A DNA stretch of 64,000 nucleotides from Spirochaetia bacterium (lineage in GTDB: Bacteria; Spirochaetota; Spirochaetia; DSM-2461). Position numbers: made by a program. Shown here in pieces: positions 36,001-42,000 of the stretch. The stretch spans positions 1,632,001-1,696,000 of the forward strand of contig CAXXIA010000002.1 in the NCBI GenBank assembly GCA_963666985.2. Reading direction: 5' to 3'. Every line of letters begins with the position of its first letter. The first letter of the stretch is position 1.

Positions 36001-39000
36001 TCGGCTACTCATTCACAAACAATTGGTCTTTGGGTATCGGATTAGGCGTTTATGTCTCTTCCTATGCCGACCGGGGACCTGCCGCTCCCTTTGTTCAGCC
36101 TGATAAAGCGGTTTATATGGGAACTCTTGGCATGCTGTACCGGACTTTGGACGAAAAACTTATATTCGACAGTTCAATCAGTTTGAGCAGTGAAACTTAC
36201 GATACTATCGACGAGACGACTTTGCAAAAAACAGACGAAGTCATGACTCCTTTTCTGTGGGAAAATACATTGACTTGGTCCTTCAATAAAAAACGGTCTT
36301 CTCTCATTGTGAAGCAGCAAAATTCCATTTGTTTTGATCGTATCTCTTATTACGGAACTCTTGCGCCTGCTTTCGAACAAGTCGCTTCCAATTGGTTTGC
36401 CGTCAGAGCGGGCGGAGAAATCTCTTTTGCCCAACTCAATACATCATCACAAGTCGGGTATGGAGGACTAATCGGTTTTTCATTCTTTAATCCGAAGAGA
36501 ACCTTTGAATTCGATCTCAATACAACCTATAGATTAAGACCCTCAAGGGCCATTGAAGAACTTCTCTATCCGGATTTCATTCTTCATATTGCCTTTGTCT
36601 TTAACGATATAGCTTTATCCAGATAACAGCGTCGGAAAAGAATATTTATTTCGGCTACTCCAGCCTCGTCTCCGCCACTCTCCAGGGCAGAGTTTTACCG
36701 GCCATCAGCGGCACGCAGCCTTCGCTTTCGGAGGGAACCGTCCAGGGCTGCCGCTCCAGAACGGTCACGCCTGAATTAGGCCCAACCCTGTAAAAATCAC
36801 GGCCGAAGTCGCAGAGAAAGGGCCGCAGCCTCTCCAAGGCGCCGGCCTCTTCAAACCAGGAAGCCAAAGCCGGCAAAATCATGGGCGCGGAATAAACACC
36901 GGCGGGCGGAGCGGAGGACTCCTTGCGGGCCCTCGGATGAGGCGCGCTGTCGGAACCGAAAAAGAAGCGCTTATCTCCCGAAAGAACGCGTTCCCGAACG
37001 GCTTCTCTGTCCGCGACGGTTTTCACTATCGGTTTGCAGAAAAGATGAGGATTCAAAAGTCCGCCCAAAAGATCGTCGACGGTAAAAAGAAGATGCTGCA
37101 CCGTAACGGTCGCGGCGGTGGGTCCGGAATCATCGGCCACGGCGGCCGCGCCTTCGGCGGAAGAAACATGTTCGAGGATTATTCGAAGCCGGGGAAACGC
37201 GCGGCGAATTTCTTTAAAAACCGGCAGAAAAGCCGCCTCGCGCTCGAAAACAGGCGCCTCGGGTTTTTCTCCATGAAAGCAGAGAACCAAATCCCGCCTT
37301 TCCATGGCGGCCAGAGCCTCTTCAGCCGTTCTCCAGTCCGTAAGTCCTCCGGTGCTGTTCGTCGTGGCTCCGTCCGGGTAGTACTTCCCGGCCACAACCC
37401 CGGCTGCGGCATGAGCGTCAATCTCGTCGGCGCTCATGCCGGGCATCAGACGAAAAGCCGTATGGACGGTCAGCCCGGGAGCGGCCGCCTCGGCGCGCCG
37501 CCGATAGTCAAGTACATCGCGGGGAGAGACAAGCGGCGGAACGGTGTTCGGCATGGCAAGGATACGGCCGAACGCGGAGTGGGCGCGGGCGTAATCGGCA
37601 AGTTCCGGTCCCTGACGTAAATGAACGTGCCAATCGTCAGGACGCGGCAGTTCGAGAATCACGGCGTCATCGTCCGGACAACACGTCCGCGTCTGTCGAT
37701 CAAAGCGATGTTCTCCCCGTCCATCACCAAGGCCCGGCCGTCCCGGAATCCTTCGGCATAGGTAAAACGCGCTCCGATGACAGTCTCGCCTTTTCGGTTG
37801 ATGTAACCCACGAACCCGCCGATTTCCACCGGAGCCAGCCCCTCGGAAAAATCCCCGGCCCATTCAAACAACGGCGGGATCACCTCATCACCCCGCCTGT
37901 TCAGATATCCGGCAAGACCGTCTCGAACAAACAGGGCCCGGCCTTCGCGGAACGGGGCGGCGAAGTTATATTCCGCGGGAATAACCGTTTTACCGCTTCT
38001 GTTGATAAAACCGCCCTTATCGCCGCTCACCGTCAGGGCCAGTCCGTCCGAGTAATCTTGGGCGAACCGATATTCCGGCGGAACAGTCTCCCGGCCGCCG
38101 CGATTAACGAATCCGTATCGGCCGTCTTTAACCACAAGGGCCCTTCCTTCGGAAAAGGGGCCCGCCAAATCGTAATCATGCCTGAAAACCGTTCGTCCCC
38201 GGCGGTTGATATAAGCTCCGCCTTCGCCGTCCCGAACCGAGGCCAGTCCTTCGGAGAAATCACCGGCCTTGCGCCAAACGGGTTTAACCGCCCAGCGGCC
38301 GCGCCGATTCAGATATCCGGCGAACTCTCCGTTCGATGGAACGGCCATGGCCCGTTTCTGCGAAAAGGAGCCTCCGACCGAATATTGGGCCGGAACAACC
38401 GTCTTTCCGCGGGGATTGATCCAGCCGCCCAGGCCGTCAATCACCACAAGGGCCCTCTTCTCGGAAAAATCATCGGCTTCTTCGAAAATCGGGGCGATTG
38501 CCTCGCGTCCCCGTCGGTCGACGAAACCGACGCCGTCGTCCTCGTACAGACGAAAATATCGGGGTCCTTTGCAGGAAATCGCGGAAAAAGACGCGCTCAG
38601 GGATAAAATCACGATAAGAACGGTTGTAAACAGACGGCGAAGCGGCATGGTCCACACTATAGCCCGGCGCCCCGATAACGGTCTATGATGGTTCTGTTCC
38701 GCCGGGGAGCCGGCGGTGAAAAGTTCGGCGGAAATTGCAGGACTCGGATGCAATTCAAGCGGGTCCGCGCCGCCGAAAAAGAACGCCGGGAAACCGGCGA
38801 TCGGCGGACAAAGGCGGCTGAACCGTGCCTCCGGGCCGTTGAAAAACAACCTTGCGGCGCATTCCGCCGCAATTCAAAGAATACGGCGCGCCCGCCGAGC
38901 GCGCGAAAGGGCCGAATAACAATGAACGAAAAAAATCTTCCTTTTACCGATCGTCAGCTTCGAGAGATTGTCCGGGAATTTCCCACTCCTTTCCATATTT

Positions 39001-42000
39001 ATGACGAAAAGGCCATTCGTGAAAGGGCGCGCTCCTTCGCGGCGGCCTTTGATTGGGCTCCTTCCGGATTCAGGAACTATTTCGCCGTCAAGGCCTGTCC
39101 GAATCCGTGGATTCTGAAACTCCTCGCCGAAGAAGGCATGGGTACCGACAGTTCCTCCATGGCGGAACTGGTTCTCTCGGAAGCCGTCGGCATCATCGGG
39201 GAAAAAGCCTTCTTTACGGCCAACGAAACACCGCTGCAGGAATACCTGAAAGCCAAGGAAATCGGCGCCATCATCAATCTTGACGATATTACTCACCTGG
39301 AATACCTGGAGCAGATCGGACTGCCGGACACGCTTTCGTTCCGTTACAATCCCGGAACGGCAAAAAGAGGCAACGACATCATTGGAAAGCCCGAAGAAGC
39401 CAAATACGGCCTTACCCGGGATCAGATGATCCAGGCTTACGCCCGGGCGCGGGACAAGGGTGTAAAGAAGTTCGGCATGCATACGATGGTCGCGTCCAAC
39501 GAACTCAACGCGGATTATTTCGTTGAAACGGCCGACCTCCTTCTGCAGCTTTTGGCCGACGTAACCGAAGAAACCGGCGTTACCATCGACTTTATCAATT
39601 TCGGGGGCGGCATCGGCATTCCCTACCGCCCGGAAGATAATCCGGTGGATCTGGAAAAAGTTTCCCGCGGAATCAAAAAGCGCTACACCGAATACATCGT
39701 GAACGCCGCGCTGAAGCCCCCTGCGATCTATTTCGAATGCGGCCGCGTTATTACCGGTCCCTACGGCTGGCTTGTTACCGAAGCGATTCACGAAAAACAC
39801 ATTTACAAGGACTATATCGGAGTCAATTCCTCCATGGCGGACCTGATGCGGCCGGGCCTGTACGGCGCCTATCACCACATTACGGTTATGGGAAAGGAAA
39901 AAGAACCGGCCACCGAAACCTACGACATTGTCGGAAGCCTCTGCGAAAACAACGATAAATTCGCCGTCGACAGAAAACTGCCTCCTATCGAACGCGGCGA
40001 TTTGCTCGTTATTCACGACACCGGCGCCCACGGCCGCGCCATGGGCTTCAACTACAACGGCAAACTGAGAACGGGAGAACTCCTGCTGAAGGAAGACGGA
40101 AGCGTCGTCGAAATAAGACGGCGTGAAAACCTGGCCGACTATTTCGCCACCCTGGACTTTCCGGGGCTGCCGAAAGCATGAACAAAGAACTCTCCCGGAA
40201 AACTGCCGTTCTCTGTGACGGCGGCGGTCGGCAAAAATCAACCGCCGCGTTTTCCCCCTTTTACGCGGCCGCCGGCGCTTGCGAATCCGGCTTCGCCGAG
40301 GACTCTTCCGGTACTCTCGACGGCATCGGCGCTTTAAGCGCTCAATGCGTTTCAGACGCTTCCGGCCGAGTGAACCGCGGCGGCCTCGATTAATGTTCAT
40401 CAAAGCCGAAATCTGGACGGTCGGTAAAACGGAAAACGGACTGGCGGCCTTGCTGCGTCTTCCCTCATCGGCCCGCTGTGTTCCGGTGTATCTTGAACAC
40501 GACGATGCCTATTCCATTCTGACCTCTCTCTCCGGAACCGAAGAAAAACCGCCGCGCTTTCCCGGTCTTTTCGCGGCATACGGCGCCGCGGTGGGAATTA
40601 GACCTGAGTCCGTGGAAATTCTCAAAACCGGATCCCCGGAAGGTTTCCGCGCCGTTATCCATTTCTCGGGCGACTCAACCCGATTCTCACTTGAGGCGAA
40701 AACTCCGACCGCCCTTTCTTTAGCGATCCGGTGCGGAATCCCCATTTTTCTCGAAAACACCATCGCCGAGGAGGATTCCATCGGCATCAATTTGTCGGAA
40801 ACCGAAATCCCCTTCGCCGTACAGCTTTCACGGCTCAAGAACGAACTCAACAAGCGCGTGAATGAGGAAGACTACGAGCAGGCGGCGCGTTTGCGGGATC
40901 GCATTAAGGTCGTTGAGGAACGAATGCGTTCCGAGGAACAATAATCCCGGCCGCGGCCGCGCTGAATTCGGTCCTGAAAATGAAGCGGCGGTTTTTCGAA
41001 AAAAGGAAGAAGGTCCGCAGATCCGCTTCGCAAAGCGATTTTGCGGGTTCGGCCGCCGAAGCCGCATCAAGCATGCCGCTTCTTTGACGCCGCAGCAGCC
41101 GCGCCGTCAAAGAGCGAAAGAACAACACGGCCGACGCCGCGCAGGTCATGATATAATAAACAACTTTTACGGATACCCCGGTGAAACTCATCGATTTATA
41201 TGCGAAACTTTCCGGCACCGCGAGGAGGCTCCCATGAACTATCCGCATCGTGATTGTTCCATAACAGGCGTCGTCGTCCCCGTCTCGGCTCTCAAGAGTT
41301 CCCGGAGTCTCGGCATCGGTGAATTCGCCGACCTGGTGCCCCTGGGCCAATGGGCGGCCAAGGCGGGACTGTCCCTTATTCAAATCCTTCCGGTGAACGA
41401 TACGGGGTTTGAACGCTCGCCCTACAGCGCCTTGAGCGCCTTCGCCCTGCATCCCGTCTACGCCCGCCTCCGGGATTTTCCGGAAACAAGTAATCCGGAA
41501 GCCGGAGCGGCCGTCAAAGCTCTGGAAAAAACCCTGCCCTCGGGCACTCGGACGGACTTCGGCGCCGTACTCTCGGAAAAACTTCGCGTTCTTCGAATTC
41601 TTTGGAAAGCGGCTTCTCAGAACGCTCGAAATCAAGCCGCGGCCTGGGCTAAAAGCAATCCGTGGATTACCTCATACGCGCTATTCTCCTTTCTCCGGGA
41701 AAAACAGGACTTGCGCTCCTGGAAGGACTGGAACTCTCACATCAACCCAACTCCCGAAGATCTGGATGCGCTGTGGAAAGAACACGAAAACGATGCGGCT
41801 TTTTATGTATGGCTCCAATGGAGACTGGAAGAACAGCTCAAAGCCGCGGCCGAAGCCCTGGACGGAATGGGTATTGCCCTTAAAGGCGATATTCCCATTC
41901 TGATTAACGACGACAGCGCCGATGTCTGGGCTCAACGCTCCTATTTTCGTTTGGCTCTGCGGGCGGGAGCTCCGCCGGACGGAGAAGCTCCCGAGGGACA

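Follow-up and report, generated by a model that had tools for sequence, protein, structure and literature searches.

The window analysed here, a stretch of 64,000 nucleotides from the genome of a Spirochaetia bacterium, carries at positions 38922..40181 of its forward strand a gene for a fold-type III PLP decarboxylase of 419 amino acids. The protein belongs to a distinct and divergent subfamily of the diaminopimelate (DAP) decarboxylase LysA, for which we use the name LysA* (gene lysA*), and we propose that it may be an L,L-DAP decarboxylase. Alignments with its homologues begin at residue 1. It is 50% identical to LysA of Streptococcus pneumoniae, itself a member of the LysA* subfamily, and 29% identical to LysA of E. 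coli. The canonical enzyme served as reference (EC 4.1.1.20; TIGR01048; PDB 2qgh, 1twi, 2p3e and 1ko0). Against the TIGR01048 lysA profile the protein scores 289.5 bits, a near miss below the cut-off of 297.9, and in genome samples a clean gap separates the LysA* subfamily (48-65% identical to it) from canonical LysA (at most 37%). In a fold search, canonical LysA 2qgh was matched with a Z of 48.1 and an rmsd of 1.7 Å over 385 residues; no solved structure of the LysA* subfamily stood among the matches. The fold-type III PLP fold, the Schiff-base lysine and the catalytic cysteine are all present, and the protein falls among DAP decarboxylases in profile and fold searches, which are blind to stereochemistry.

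In the window, lysA* has as neighbours a gene with WG repeats, one with a bifunctional-nuclease domain and one for an amidohydrolase, and does not lie in a secondary-metabolite cluster. Positions 36500-41500 gave no match to Rfam families, and nothing convincing was found as a promoter or terminator around the gene. lysA* is the sole LysA of the genome, where the single further family member is an ornithine/lysine decarboxylase.

Active-site residues of LysA*

We compared 104 rows of the LysA* subfamily with 31 rows of canonical LysA in one alignment; all motifs below lie on the forward strand. Like canonical LysA, LysA* retains Lys57, Glu272, Arg275, Arg310, Tyr314, Cys341, Glu342 and Tyr378 (LysA* numbering). 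Lys57 (39090..39092), the PLP Schiff-base lysine corresponding to E. coli K54, is a lysine in 103/104 subfamily rows, with one gap, and in 31/31 canonical rows. The distal site for the L-amino-acid end is also kept, with R275, R310, Y314 and E342 in 104/104 LysA* rows; the roles of these residues in LysA have been described (PMC8277567). Arg310 and Tyr314 of the distal carboxylate site belong to RPGLY (residues 310-314, 39849..39863), and the distal-amine residue Glu342 follows Cys341 in CENNDKF (residues 341-347, 39942..39962).

LysA* differs from canonical LysA at His191, E. coli Y378, the EPGR and CESGD motifs and the lid. HTMVASN (residues 187-193, 39480..39500) replaces the canonical HxHIGSQ, and the PLP-stacking histidine (E. 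coli H191) has become Met, Phe or Leu, since His occurs in 0/104 subfamily rows vs 31/31 canonical ones. Likewise, the phosphate-binding tyrosine (E. coli Y378) is a histidine in 104/104 LysA* rows, vs Tyr in 31/31 canonical rows; in the window protein this change lies in GAHGRAMGFNYN (residues 368-379, 40023..40058). Canonical EPGR reads ECGR here (residues 272-275, 39735..39746), with Glu272 and Arg275 kept and the proline gone; across the subfamily it takes the form E(C/L/S/N/M)GR, and Pro is none of the three commonest states. In place of canonical CESGD the subfamily has CEN(N/C)DK, with Asn343 and Lys346 invariant and subfamily-specific. Finally, in the active-site lid (residues 150-163, 39369..39410, GNDIIGKPEEAKYG), whose role in LysA is described in PMC8277567, canonical Thr157 gives way to Gly or Asp, and Pro157 is invariant. 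LysA* is thus a lysine enzyme of streptococci and treponemes with an active site unlike the solved ones.

The ornithine/lysine decarboxylase of the same genome retains both the His and the Tyr that are changed in LysA*, so these changes are not an L-specific signature, which counts against the use of L,L-DAP. BtrK, FslC and SbnH are fold-III decarboxylases acting at an L-centre; like ornithine/lysine decarboxylase they share the fold of LysA*, at 17-24% identity. Unlike the ODC-type paralogue, which has a CD motif and no distal carboxylate site, LysA* has CE and RPxxY. Ornithine decarboxylase, also of fold III, acts at the L-centre (PMC8277567).

Lysine genes and the distribution of DapF

The genome was searched as three contigs that are 93.1% complete. 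As the preliminary description had stated, dapA, dapB, dapL and the divergent decarboxylase are present and DapF and Ddh are absent by profile searches. Indeed, dapA, dapB, asd and lysC were all found and DapL lies above its cut-off (562.9 bits); DapF gave no PF01678 match, no tblastn match and no catalytic motif, and Ddh no TIGR01921 match. All members of signature P3, defined for the DapL variant of the DAP pathway (DapA, DapB, DapL, DapF, LysA; PMC9026213), are thus present except DapF. The two PF01168 matches reported earlier proved to be Alr and a YggS-like protein, as described, and at this completeness no meso-DAP source (DapF, Ddh or DapF2) was found here, nor in most of the DapF-less relatives. 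For the LysW route, no C-terminal LysW motif was seen in the genome, which is a weak test. MurE reads DEDPR and lacks the DN(P/S)R motif for meso-DAP.

The earlier restriction of the pattern to two spirochaete genera was too narrow, as LysA* without DapF also occurs in Lactobacillales and archaea; the epimerase-less pattern is much wider than first reported. The Methanosarcina phylum was sampled with 151 genomes, and DapF is present in 0/20 LysA* carriers vs 123/128 canonical-LysA genomes, a contrast that amounts to one or two events, as carriers within each group are kin by descent and all these counts overstate independence. Archaea are informative because their DapF can serve lysine only; among Methanosarcinales-titled records it is absent from 13/13. 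The same tendency is seen in 151 Lactobacillales genomes (0/25 LysA* carriers vs 57/93 canonical) and in 221 genomes of Spirochaetota (31/54 vs 138/144), where seven of the 31 are CarB-DapF fusions without the first catalytic Cys. The proposed link to DapL does not hold as such: streptococci have LysA* without DapL and use the acetyl route (Dual Tn-seq preprint, 10.1101/2024.09.24.614635).

Among bacterial carriers, the presence of DapF follows the MurE motif. In 80 of them, DapF was found in 40/43 with a DN(P/S)R MurE (the meso-DAP motif) and in 8/37 without; seven of these eight are CarB fusions missing the catalytic Cys, and with Cys-less fusions scored as absent the counts become 39/43 and 1/37. 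In a count of DapB, 79 of 80 LysA* carriers have it, so the upstream path is intact. On the enzyme tree the DapF state switches 13 times, and no alignment column separates the two groups. Two observations count against the use of L,L-DAP: G069 has an intact-looking DapF yet a non-DAP MurE, and four DNPR-MurE carriers (G047, G242, G254 and G250) have no intact DapF, gaps that fit assembly gaps as well as an unknown epimerase.

A compact epimerase-free cluster, lysC-dapB-dapA-asd-lysA*-dapL, occurs at locus L023, with similar ones at L019, L025, L027 and L081. No neighbour beyond known lysine genes is common across phyla in 112 lysA* loci, and the ORFs within the clusters are unrelated to one another; three Treponema loci have an ORF of 138 aa between asd and lysA* that has no Pfam match and no counterpart in this genome. 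Against the use of L,L-DAP, dapF immediately precedes lysA* in 7/80 loci, all Prolixibacteraceae- or Bacteroidetes-titled. Among longer LysA* forms, 38 matches are mostly DapA fusions and none carries PF01678, in a size range that exceeds the length of a DapF fusion. One candidate, P0155, was rejected as a DapL-LysA* fusion: its aminotransferase best resembles models of MppQ/MocR type and falls far short of the DapL cut-offs.

Proposed substrate of LysA* and possible sources of meso-DAP

Reviews describe meso-DAP decarboxylation as the single step that every DAP route shares, and LysA enzymes characterised so far are described as strictly meso-preferring; a literature search for LL-DAP decarboxylase as an exact phrase found no paper. 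In a gut-genome table, Lactococcus lactis and Collinsella aerofaciens count as lysine prototrophs, with none of DapF, DapF2 and Ddh, and the Dual Tn-seq preprint treats the missing dapF of S. pneumoniae as an open question: in the part available to us, the pathway emerged from its screen for partners of the lysine transporter, and no epimerase did (10.1101/2024.09.24.614635).

From the gene content, co-occurrence and residue changes observed, we infer that LysA* probably accepts L,L-DAP as a substrate. Chances are about even that it is strictly L,L-specific, and its taking both L,L- and meso-DAP seems rather less likely. The pathway here would run through LysC, Asd, DapA, DapB, DapL and LysA*, with L,L-DAP supplied by DapL in this genome and by acyl routes elsewhere. 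LysA* would then remove CO2 from one L-centre of L,L-DAP to give L-lysine, and no epimerase would be needed because L,L-DAP is symmetric and either end gives L-lysine. DapF would be needed only for the meso-DAP of the wall, and could be lost where the wall has ornithine or lysine or is absent. In the site, the distal L-amino-acid end may be held as in canonical LysA, by Arg275, Arg310, Tyr314 and Glu342, and the changed His, lid and Tyr may remodel the reacting end. A strictly L,L-specific LysA* would be the stereochemical inverse of LysA and would define a variant of the DAP pathway that has no epimerase, having moved by transfer between spirochaetes, streptococci, Collinsella, Bacteroidota, Methanosarcinaceae and Woesearchaeota, perhaps also oomycetes; we hold this to be an evenly balanced proposition.

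The preliminary description had left a choice between direct use of L,L-DAP and an unknown epimerase, and the former is, on our inference, the better supported of the two. An ordinary meso-DAP decarboxylase served by an undescribed epimerase family in DapF-less carriers is in our view improbable, even if non-homologous replacements such as the staphylococcal DapF2 are known (PMC13759103), and even if the four DNPR-MurE carriers above and some canonical-LysA genomes without DapF, Ddh or a visible DapF2 would suit it. It leaves unexplained why DapF loss tracks LysA type in three separate groups and why carriers with meso-DAP walls retain DapF; the 112 loci yield no shared candidate beside the known lysine genes, and none emerged in the available part of the pneumococcal screen, although such a screen would miss a gene that is essential or redundant. 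DapF-less canonical LysA mostly has a replacement: Ddh was found in 11/26 such genomes tested and an Alr-like gene beside lysA in three more. Against the use of L,L-DAP, neither was seen in 12/26, with flanks read for at most nine of the 15 that lack Ddh. By comparison, Ddh occurs in 1/54 DapF-less LysA* carriers, and that ddh adjoins a second, canonical-type lysA. Among metagenome ddh loci, lysA stood in the flanks of 1/80 and was of canonical type, too few to count.

That a meso-specific LysA* is fed by leaky epimerisation, through racemases with housekeeping roles or paralogues with the DapF fold (Alr, MurI, YgeA, PhzF, PrpF), is very improbable, although several facts speak for such a supply. 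E. coli without dapF shows no growth defect (PMC13759103), so that leaky racemisation can supply meso-DAP, which counts against the use of L,L-DAP, as does the presence in this genome of YgeA-like racemase, PhzF-like and PrpF proteins. Alr and a PF01177 protein occur in 56/56 bacterial carriers tested, and murI adjoins lysA* in nine Lactobacillales loci. However, Alr was found in 0/24 archaeal carriers, PF01177 is missing as well from 16/20 in the phylum sample, and the paralogues of this genome are absent from most other carriers tested (PhzF and PrpF in 1/5, proline racemase in 0/5), so that no known racemase family is common to all LysA* carriers. The earlier caveat that each relative has two or more Asp/Glu racemase genes was not borne out, as PF01177 has at least two matches in 11 of 80 DapF-less carriers, one in 50 and none in 19. 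Moreover, canonical-LysA archaea and spirochaetes seldom lack DapF, so the leak is usually insufficient. DUF2322, considered as a candidate hidden epimerase, is fused to five LysA* relatives and had no match in five carriers, in a search whose control matched nowhere either.

A hidden two-step reaction would have the same net outcome but is hardly to be expected: the PLP of LysA* would itself serve to epimerise L,L-DAP, and the meso-DAP formed would stay bound and lose CO2 at its D-centre. LysA* does share its fold with alanine racemase (PMC8277567), and around the site there are new polar residues that are invariant (His290, Asn343, Lys346, His365 and His370), but the residue data give no sign of a second catalytic base, and the DapF kept by carriers with meso-DAP walls indicates that the enzyme provides no free meso-DAP.

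Direct use of L,L-DAP by LysA*, if true, would probably explain epimerase-free lysine synthesis in streptococci, Methanosarcina-type archaea and many spirochaetes. It would close a gap for several phyla, correct pathway annotation and reveal how a site of fold III can change from one centre, D or L, to the other. A dapF reported elsewhere in the genome of T. azotonutricium (PMC4176475) counts against it. LysA* shares with canonical LysA the fold, the last step of the DAP pathway and clustering with dap genes, but shows no dependence on DapF, Ddh or DapF2. The DapF2/Alr2 route of staphylococci and the Ddh route also give lysine without DapF; unlike LysA*, they still make meso-DAP for canonical LysA, and neither is present in most LysA* carriers. 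LysA of the diatom Phaeodactylum tricornutum (PDB 7jpj), a stereo-promiscuous DAP decarboxylase, shows weak and incomplete turnover of L,L-DAP (10.1101/2020.10.01.322594); the fold is therefore capable of the reaction, although that enzyme is of a different clan, has EPGT, keeps the His and is 22% identical, and diatoms keep DapF.

A search of plasmids, a second search that started from a cluster-borne homologue and a cluster look-up all returned no protein named TabA; the link to TabA rests on the 44% identity given in the preliminary description. A 2022 Org. Lett. paper on the early steps of tabtoxin synthesis reportedly describes 5-methyl-L-lysine, which may bear on the stereochemistry of TabA. 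In Pseudomonas syringae, TabA is a LysA homologue whose gene shares the tabtoxin cluster with genes for DapD-like and aminotransferase proteins, with no epimerase listed there, and an E. coli lysA mutant was not rescued by tabA (review PMC3927611); since E. coli makes L,L-DAP, this counts against the use of L,L-DAP. Unlike TabA, which serves a secondary metabolite, the LysA* of this genome is not encoded in a secondary-metabolite cluster. Cluster-borne LysA-like homologues are 43-49% identical and have the same changed motifs; those on Yersinia and Agrobacterium plasmids (44-46%) form the sister branch on the tree.

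A divergent decarboxylase in a pathway without DapF or Ddh

The lysA* gene lies at window positions 38922-40181 on the plus strand, as a 419 aa ORF. It is solitary, with a divergent WG-repeat gene on one side and a bifunctional-nuclease-domain gene on the other, and no Rfam element was found near it. The protein scores 289.5 bits with TIGR01048, under the 297.9 cut-off, and its best sequence matches in the PDB are all diaminopimelate (DAP) decarboxylases at about 30% identity. Its AlphaFold model (118 sequences, pLDDT 96.9) is closest to H. pylori LysA (Z 48.1, rmsd 1.7 Å over 385 residues). 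We set LysA* membership solely by identity to the window protein, with a distinct gap in each sample: at least 55% for LysA* versus at most 33% for the others in its own phylum, 58% versus 37% in archaea and 48% versus 31% in Lactobacillales. In a tree of 98 sequences with six canonical outgroups, LysA* and its cluster-borne relatives form a single branch (support 0.94). While LysA* resembles LysA in its working, it departs from it in both motifs and genome context.

The source assembly (3 contigs, 93.1% complete) encodes a DapL over its cut-off, dapA-dapB, asd-lysC and a second lysC; the sole other member of the decarboxylase family is an ornithine/lysine decarboxylase. DapF was not found by profile, tblastn or motif, nor was Ddh, and the pathway without either, put forward in the preliminary description, holds here. 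The two enzymes were likewise not found in the two nearest named relatives, one of which is a single chromosome. MurE of the source genome reads DEDPR and not DNPR, the latter motif being reported to bind meso-DAP (PMC3829189). In addition to MurI, the genome encodes a YgeA-like racemase as well as PhzF-like and PrpF proteins, and these speak against a simple pathway gap.

DapF retention, wall type and gene order

We consider it probable that LysA* accepts L,L-DAP. Of the two readings offered earlier, direct use of L,L-DAP or an unknown epimerase, the former is favoured, as each of four separate comparisons (archaea, Lactobacillales, wall type and Ddh) showed the pattern expected of it. In the gene's own phylum (221 genomes), DapF is over its cut-off in 31/54 LysA* carriers versus 138/144 genomes with other LysA-like genes only, a weak match in G190 being scored absent and a few of the 144 resting on weak matches that may not be LysA. 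In the Methanosarcina phylum (151 genomes) the counts are 0/20 versus 123/128, with one weak match scored absent; this contrast, which stands on one or two lineages, is the cleanest because archaea have no peptidoglycan. Among 151 Lactobacillales genomes, DapF occurs in 0/25 carriers versus 57/93. Fifty of the 80 named loci were also tested (all non-spirochaete titles and the two nearest spirochaetes): DapF was found in 24 and not in 26, including all 13 Methanosarcinales.

The MurE motif was read in 80 bacterial carriers (77 of 80 searched matched, three were added, and a second G226 copy was excluded). DapF is present in 40 of 43 with DN(P/S)R MurE versus 8 of 37 without. In seven of these eight, the DapF domain is fused to carbamoyl-phosphate synthase and has Ala or Ser in place of its first catalytic Cys, and G069 has an intact-looking DapF; in G250, of the DNPR group, DapF is present only as such a fusion. 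The corrected counts are 39/43 versus 1/37, catalytic residues having been read in part of the 39. LysA* carriers therefore retain DapF where the wall requires meso-DAP and lose it otherwise. Across 89 labelled rows of the LysA* tree, DapF state switches 13 times (counted with no shuffle control). No alignment column was found to separate LysA* of the two states; thus, the same enzyme operates with and without DapF.

The fusion of the carbamoyl-phosphate synthase large subunit to a DapF domain with Ala or Ser at the first Cys, which artificially raises DapF counts, was seen in 7 treponeme-family and 2 Clostridia-titled genomes (L242:5200-9300 in G067; L253, L254, L256, L257 and L272-L275).

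In the flanks of lysA* at 80 loci, dapL-like genes occur in 15, dapF in 7, and ddh or an Alr-like gene in none. The seven dapF-flanked loci count against a strict L,L-DAP reading, an objection tempered by the DNPR MurE of at least five of their genomes. Lysine clusters read lysC-dapB-dapA-asd-lysA*-dapL (L023), dapB-dapA-lysA*-x-dapL-lysC-asd (L025, L019), lysA*-dapL-lysC-asd (L027) and dapB-dapA-dapL-lysA* (L081), and no epimerase gene was found within them. Extra ORFs inserted in lysA* clusters encode a B3/4 protein and a GNAT protein. Three Treponema loci have a 138-aa ORF in the asd/lysA* interval (L029:6248-6664; L035:1345-1758; doubled at L037:6968-7384 and 7427-8002); its product has no Pfam match and was not found in the source genome. 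In Prolixibacteraceae (L041, L042, L044, L059, L061, L069, L072), the dapF directly upstream of lysA* encodes Ser at both catalytic Cys positions; serine-type DapF has already been described.

Alternative sources of meso-DAP and the active site

The Ddh search covered 54 of the 92 carriers without DapF and 26 of the 47 canonical genomes without it, and was positive in 1/54 versus 11/26; in the single positive carrier, ddh adjoins a second, canonical-type lysA. Of seven Lactobacillales canonical genomes in which neither DapF nor Ddh was found, three carry an Alr-like gene next to lysA within a lysine operon and four a solitary lysA. In four Lactobacillales genomes (L114, L116, L122, L124), a solitary canonical lysA adjoins nucleoside-salvage genes, DapF and Ddh not being found, possibly reflecting salvage of meso-DAP. 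One archaeal exception, L132 (G310), with neither DapF nor Ddh, has a LysA in which CCT replaces CE; this is a second, separate DapF-less remodelling.

An unknown epimerase supplying meso-DAP is unlikely in our view, and supply by leaky racemases even more so. The Dual Tn-seq preprint (10.1101/2024.09.24.614635) describes S. pneumoniae as making lysine by the acetyl route and lacking dapF, and reports that the screen recovered no epimerase; its authors propose a redundant, essential or undetected one. DapB is present in 79/80 DapF-less LysA* carriers. PF01177 is missing from 19 of the 80, single in 50 and present in two or more copies in 11; Alr occurs in 0/24 archaeal and 56/56 bacterial DapF-less carriers (two genes in 2). 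Among 5 carriers, PhzF and PrpF were found in the source genome only and proline racemase in none. On these counts, the two or more Asp/Glu racemase genes that the preliminary description had ascribed to each relative are not general among carriers, and the refuting case it built on them is not borne out.

Residues were compared between 104 LysA* and 31 canonical sequences. LysA* retains the Schiff-base Lys, the Glu beneath the ring, the catalytic Cys and a distal site made up of Arg275/Arg310/Tyr314/Glu342, so its substrate should still be free DAP, held by an L-end. The PLP-stacking His (E. coli H191) becomes Met, Phe or Leu and the phosphate Tyr (E. coli Y378) His, the lid is different, and two further positions, Asn343 and Lys346, have become invariant. 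In the alignment, these changes are located at the reacting end, where, according to PMC8277567, the leaving carboxylate of the D-centre lies on the Si face, opposite Lys, and the lid contributes to its recognition. We infer that they would reverse the stereo-preference. They do not copy L-specific ornithine decarboxylases, which keep both His and Tyr. Epimerisation within the LysA* active site is, in our view, the least probable explanation.

PMC9026213 scores L. lactis A76 and C. aerofaciens ATCC 25986 as prototrophs and leaves their entries for DapF, DapF2 and Ddh blank. GapMind 2026 (PMC13759103) supports DapF2 and includes a diverged Chitinivibrio LysA, possibly a member of LysA*; no L,L-specific LysA was found in its available text. 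Enzymes preceding the diatom LysA, which shows incomplete L,L-DAP turnover, are described as strictly meso-preferring (10.1101/2020.10.01.322594). E. coli lysA was not complemented by tabA (PMC3927611), and a T. azotonutricium operon is missing a single gene, dapF, which is said to sit elsewhere in the genome (PMC4176475). Outside subscription journals, no description of an LL-DAP decarboxylase was found, exact phrase included. Subscription-journal work on TabA may anticipate part of the chemistry.

Spread and variants of LysA*

The 80 kept loci carry the titles of spirochaetes, Methanosarcinales, Woesearchaeota, Prolixibacteraceae, Chitinivibrionia, Deferribacterota, Clostridia, Collinsella, Trichococcus and others. 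Clusters with Lactobacillales copies bear the names Streptococcus (including S. pneumoniae) and Aerococcus; two members from S. pneumoniae show 50% identity to the window protein and have the LysA* motifs. In small Woesearchaeota-titled genomes (L019, L025, L027, L077), LysA* belongs to lysine clusters that are nearly complete, which is unusual for archaea of reduced biosynthesis. L066 (G262), titled Anaerovoracaceae, is probably mis-titled or mis-binned, its LysA* and MurE grouping with treponemes.

The oomycete Pythium insidiosum has a LysA* domain (P0448, 41% identical) with the changed motifs of the subfamily. Relatives P0123, P0124, P0125, P0128 and P0159 bear an N-terminal DUF2322 domain, and P0419-P0447, P0391, P0155 and P0449-P0451 are fusions to DapA (Collinsella type), DapD or an MppQ/MocR-like aminotransferase, the last in eukaryotic-looking proteins. 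LysA*-like genes also lie in small-molecule clusters on plasmids of Yersinia frederiksenii (L264:4484-11689, with a methyltransferase, an ATP-grasp ligase and an aminotransferase) and Agrobacterium (L263:7848-15657, with a 2OG-Fe(II) oxygenase, a creatininase and a MATE pump). Elsewhere in the window, positions 31103-31744 (minus strand) encode a HisE-like phosphoribosyl-ATP pyrophosphatase. By eye, the N-terminal half of this protein resembles a degenerate HisI domain, and a hisA-like gene adjoins its gene.
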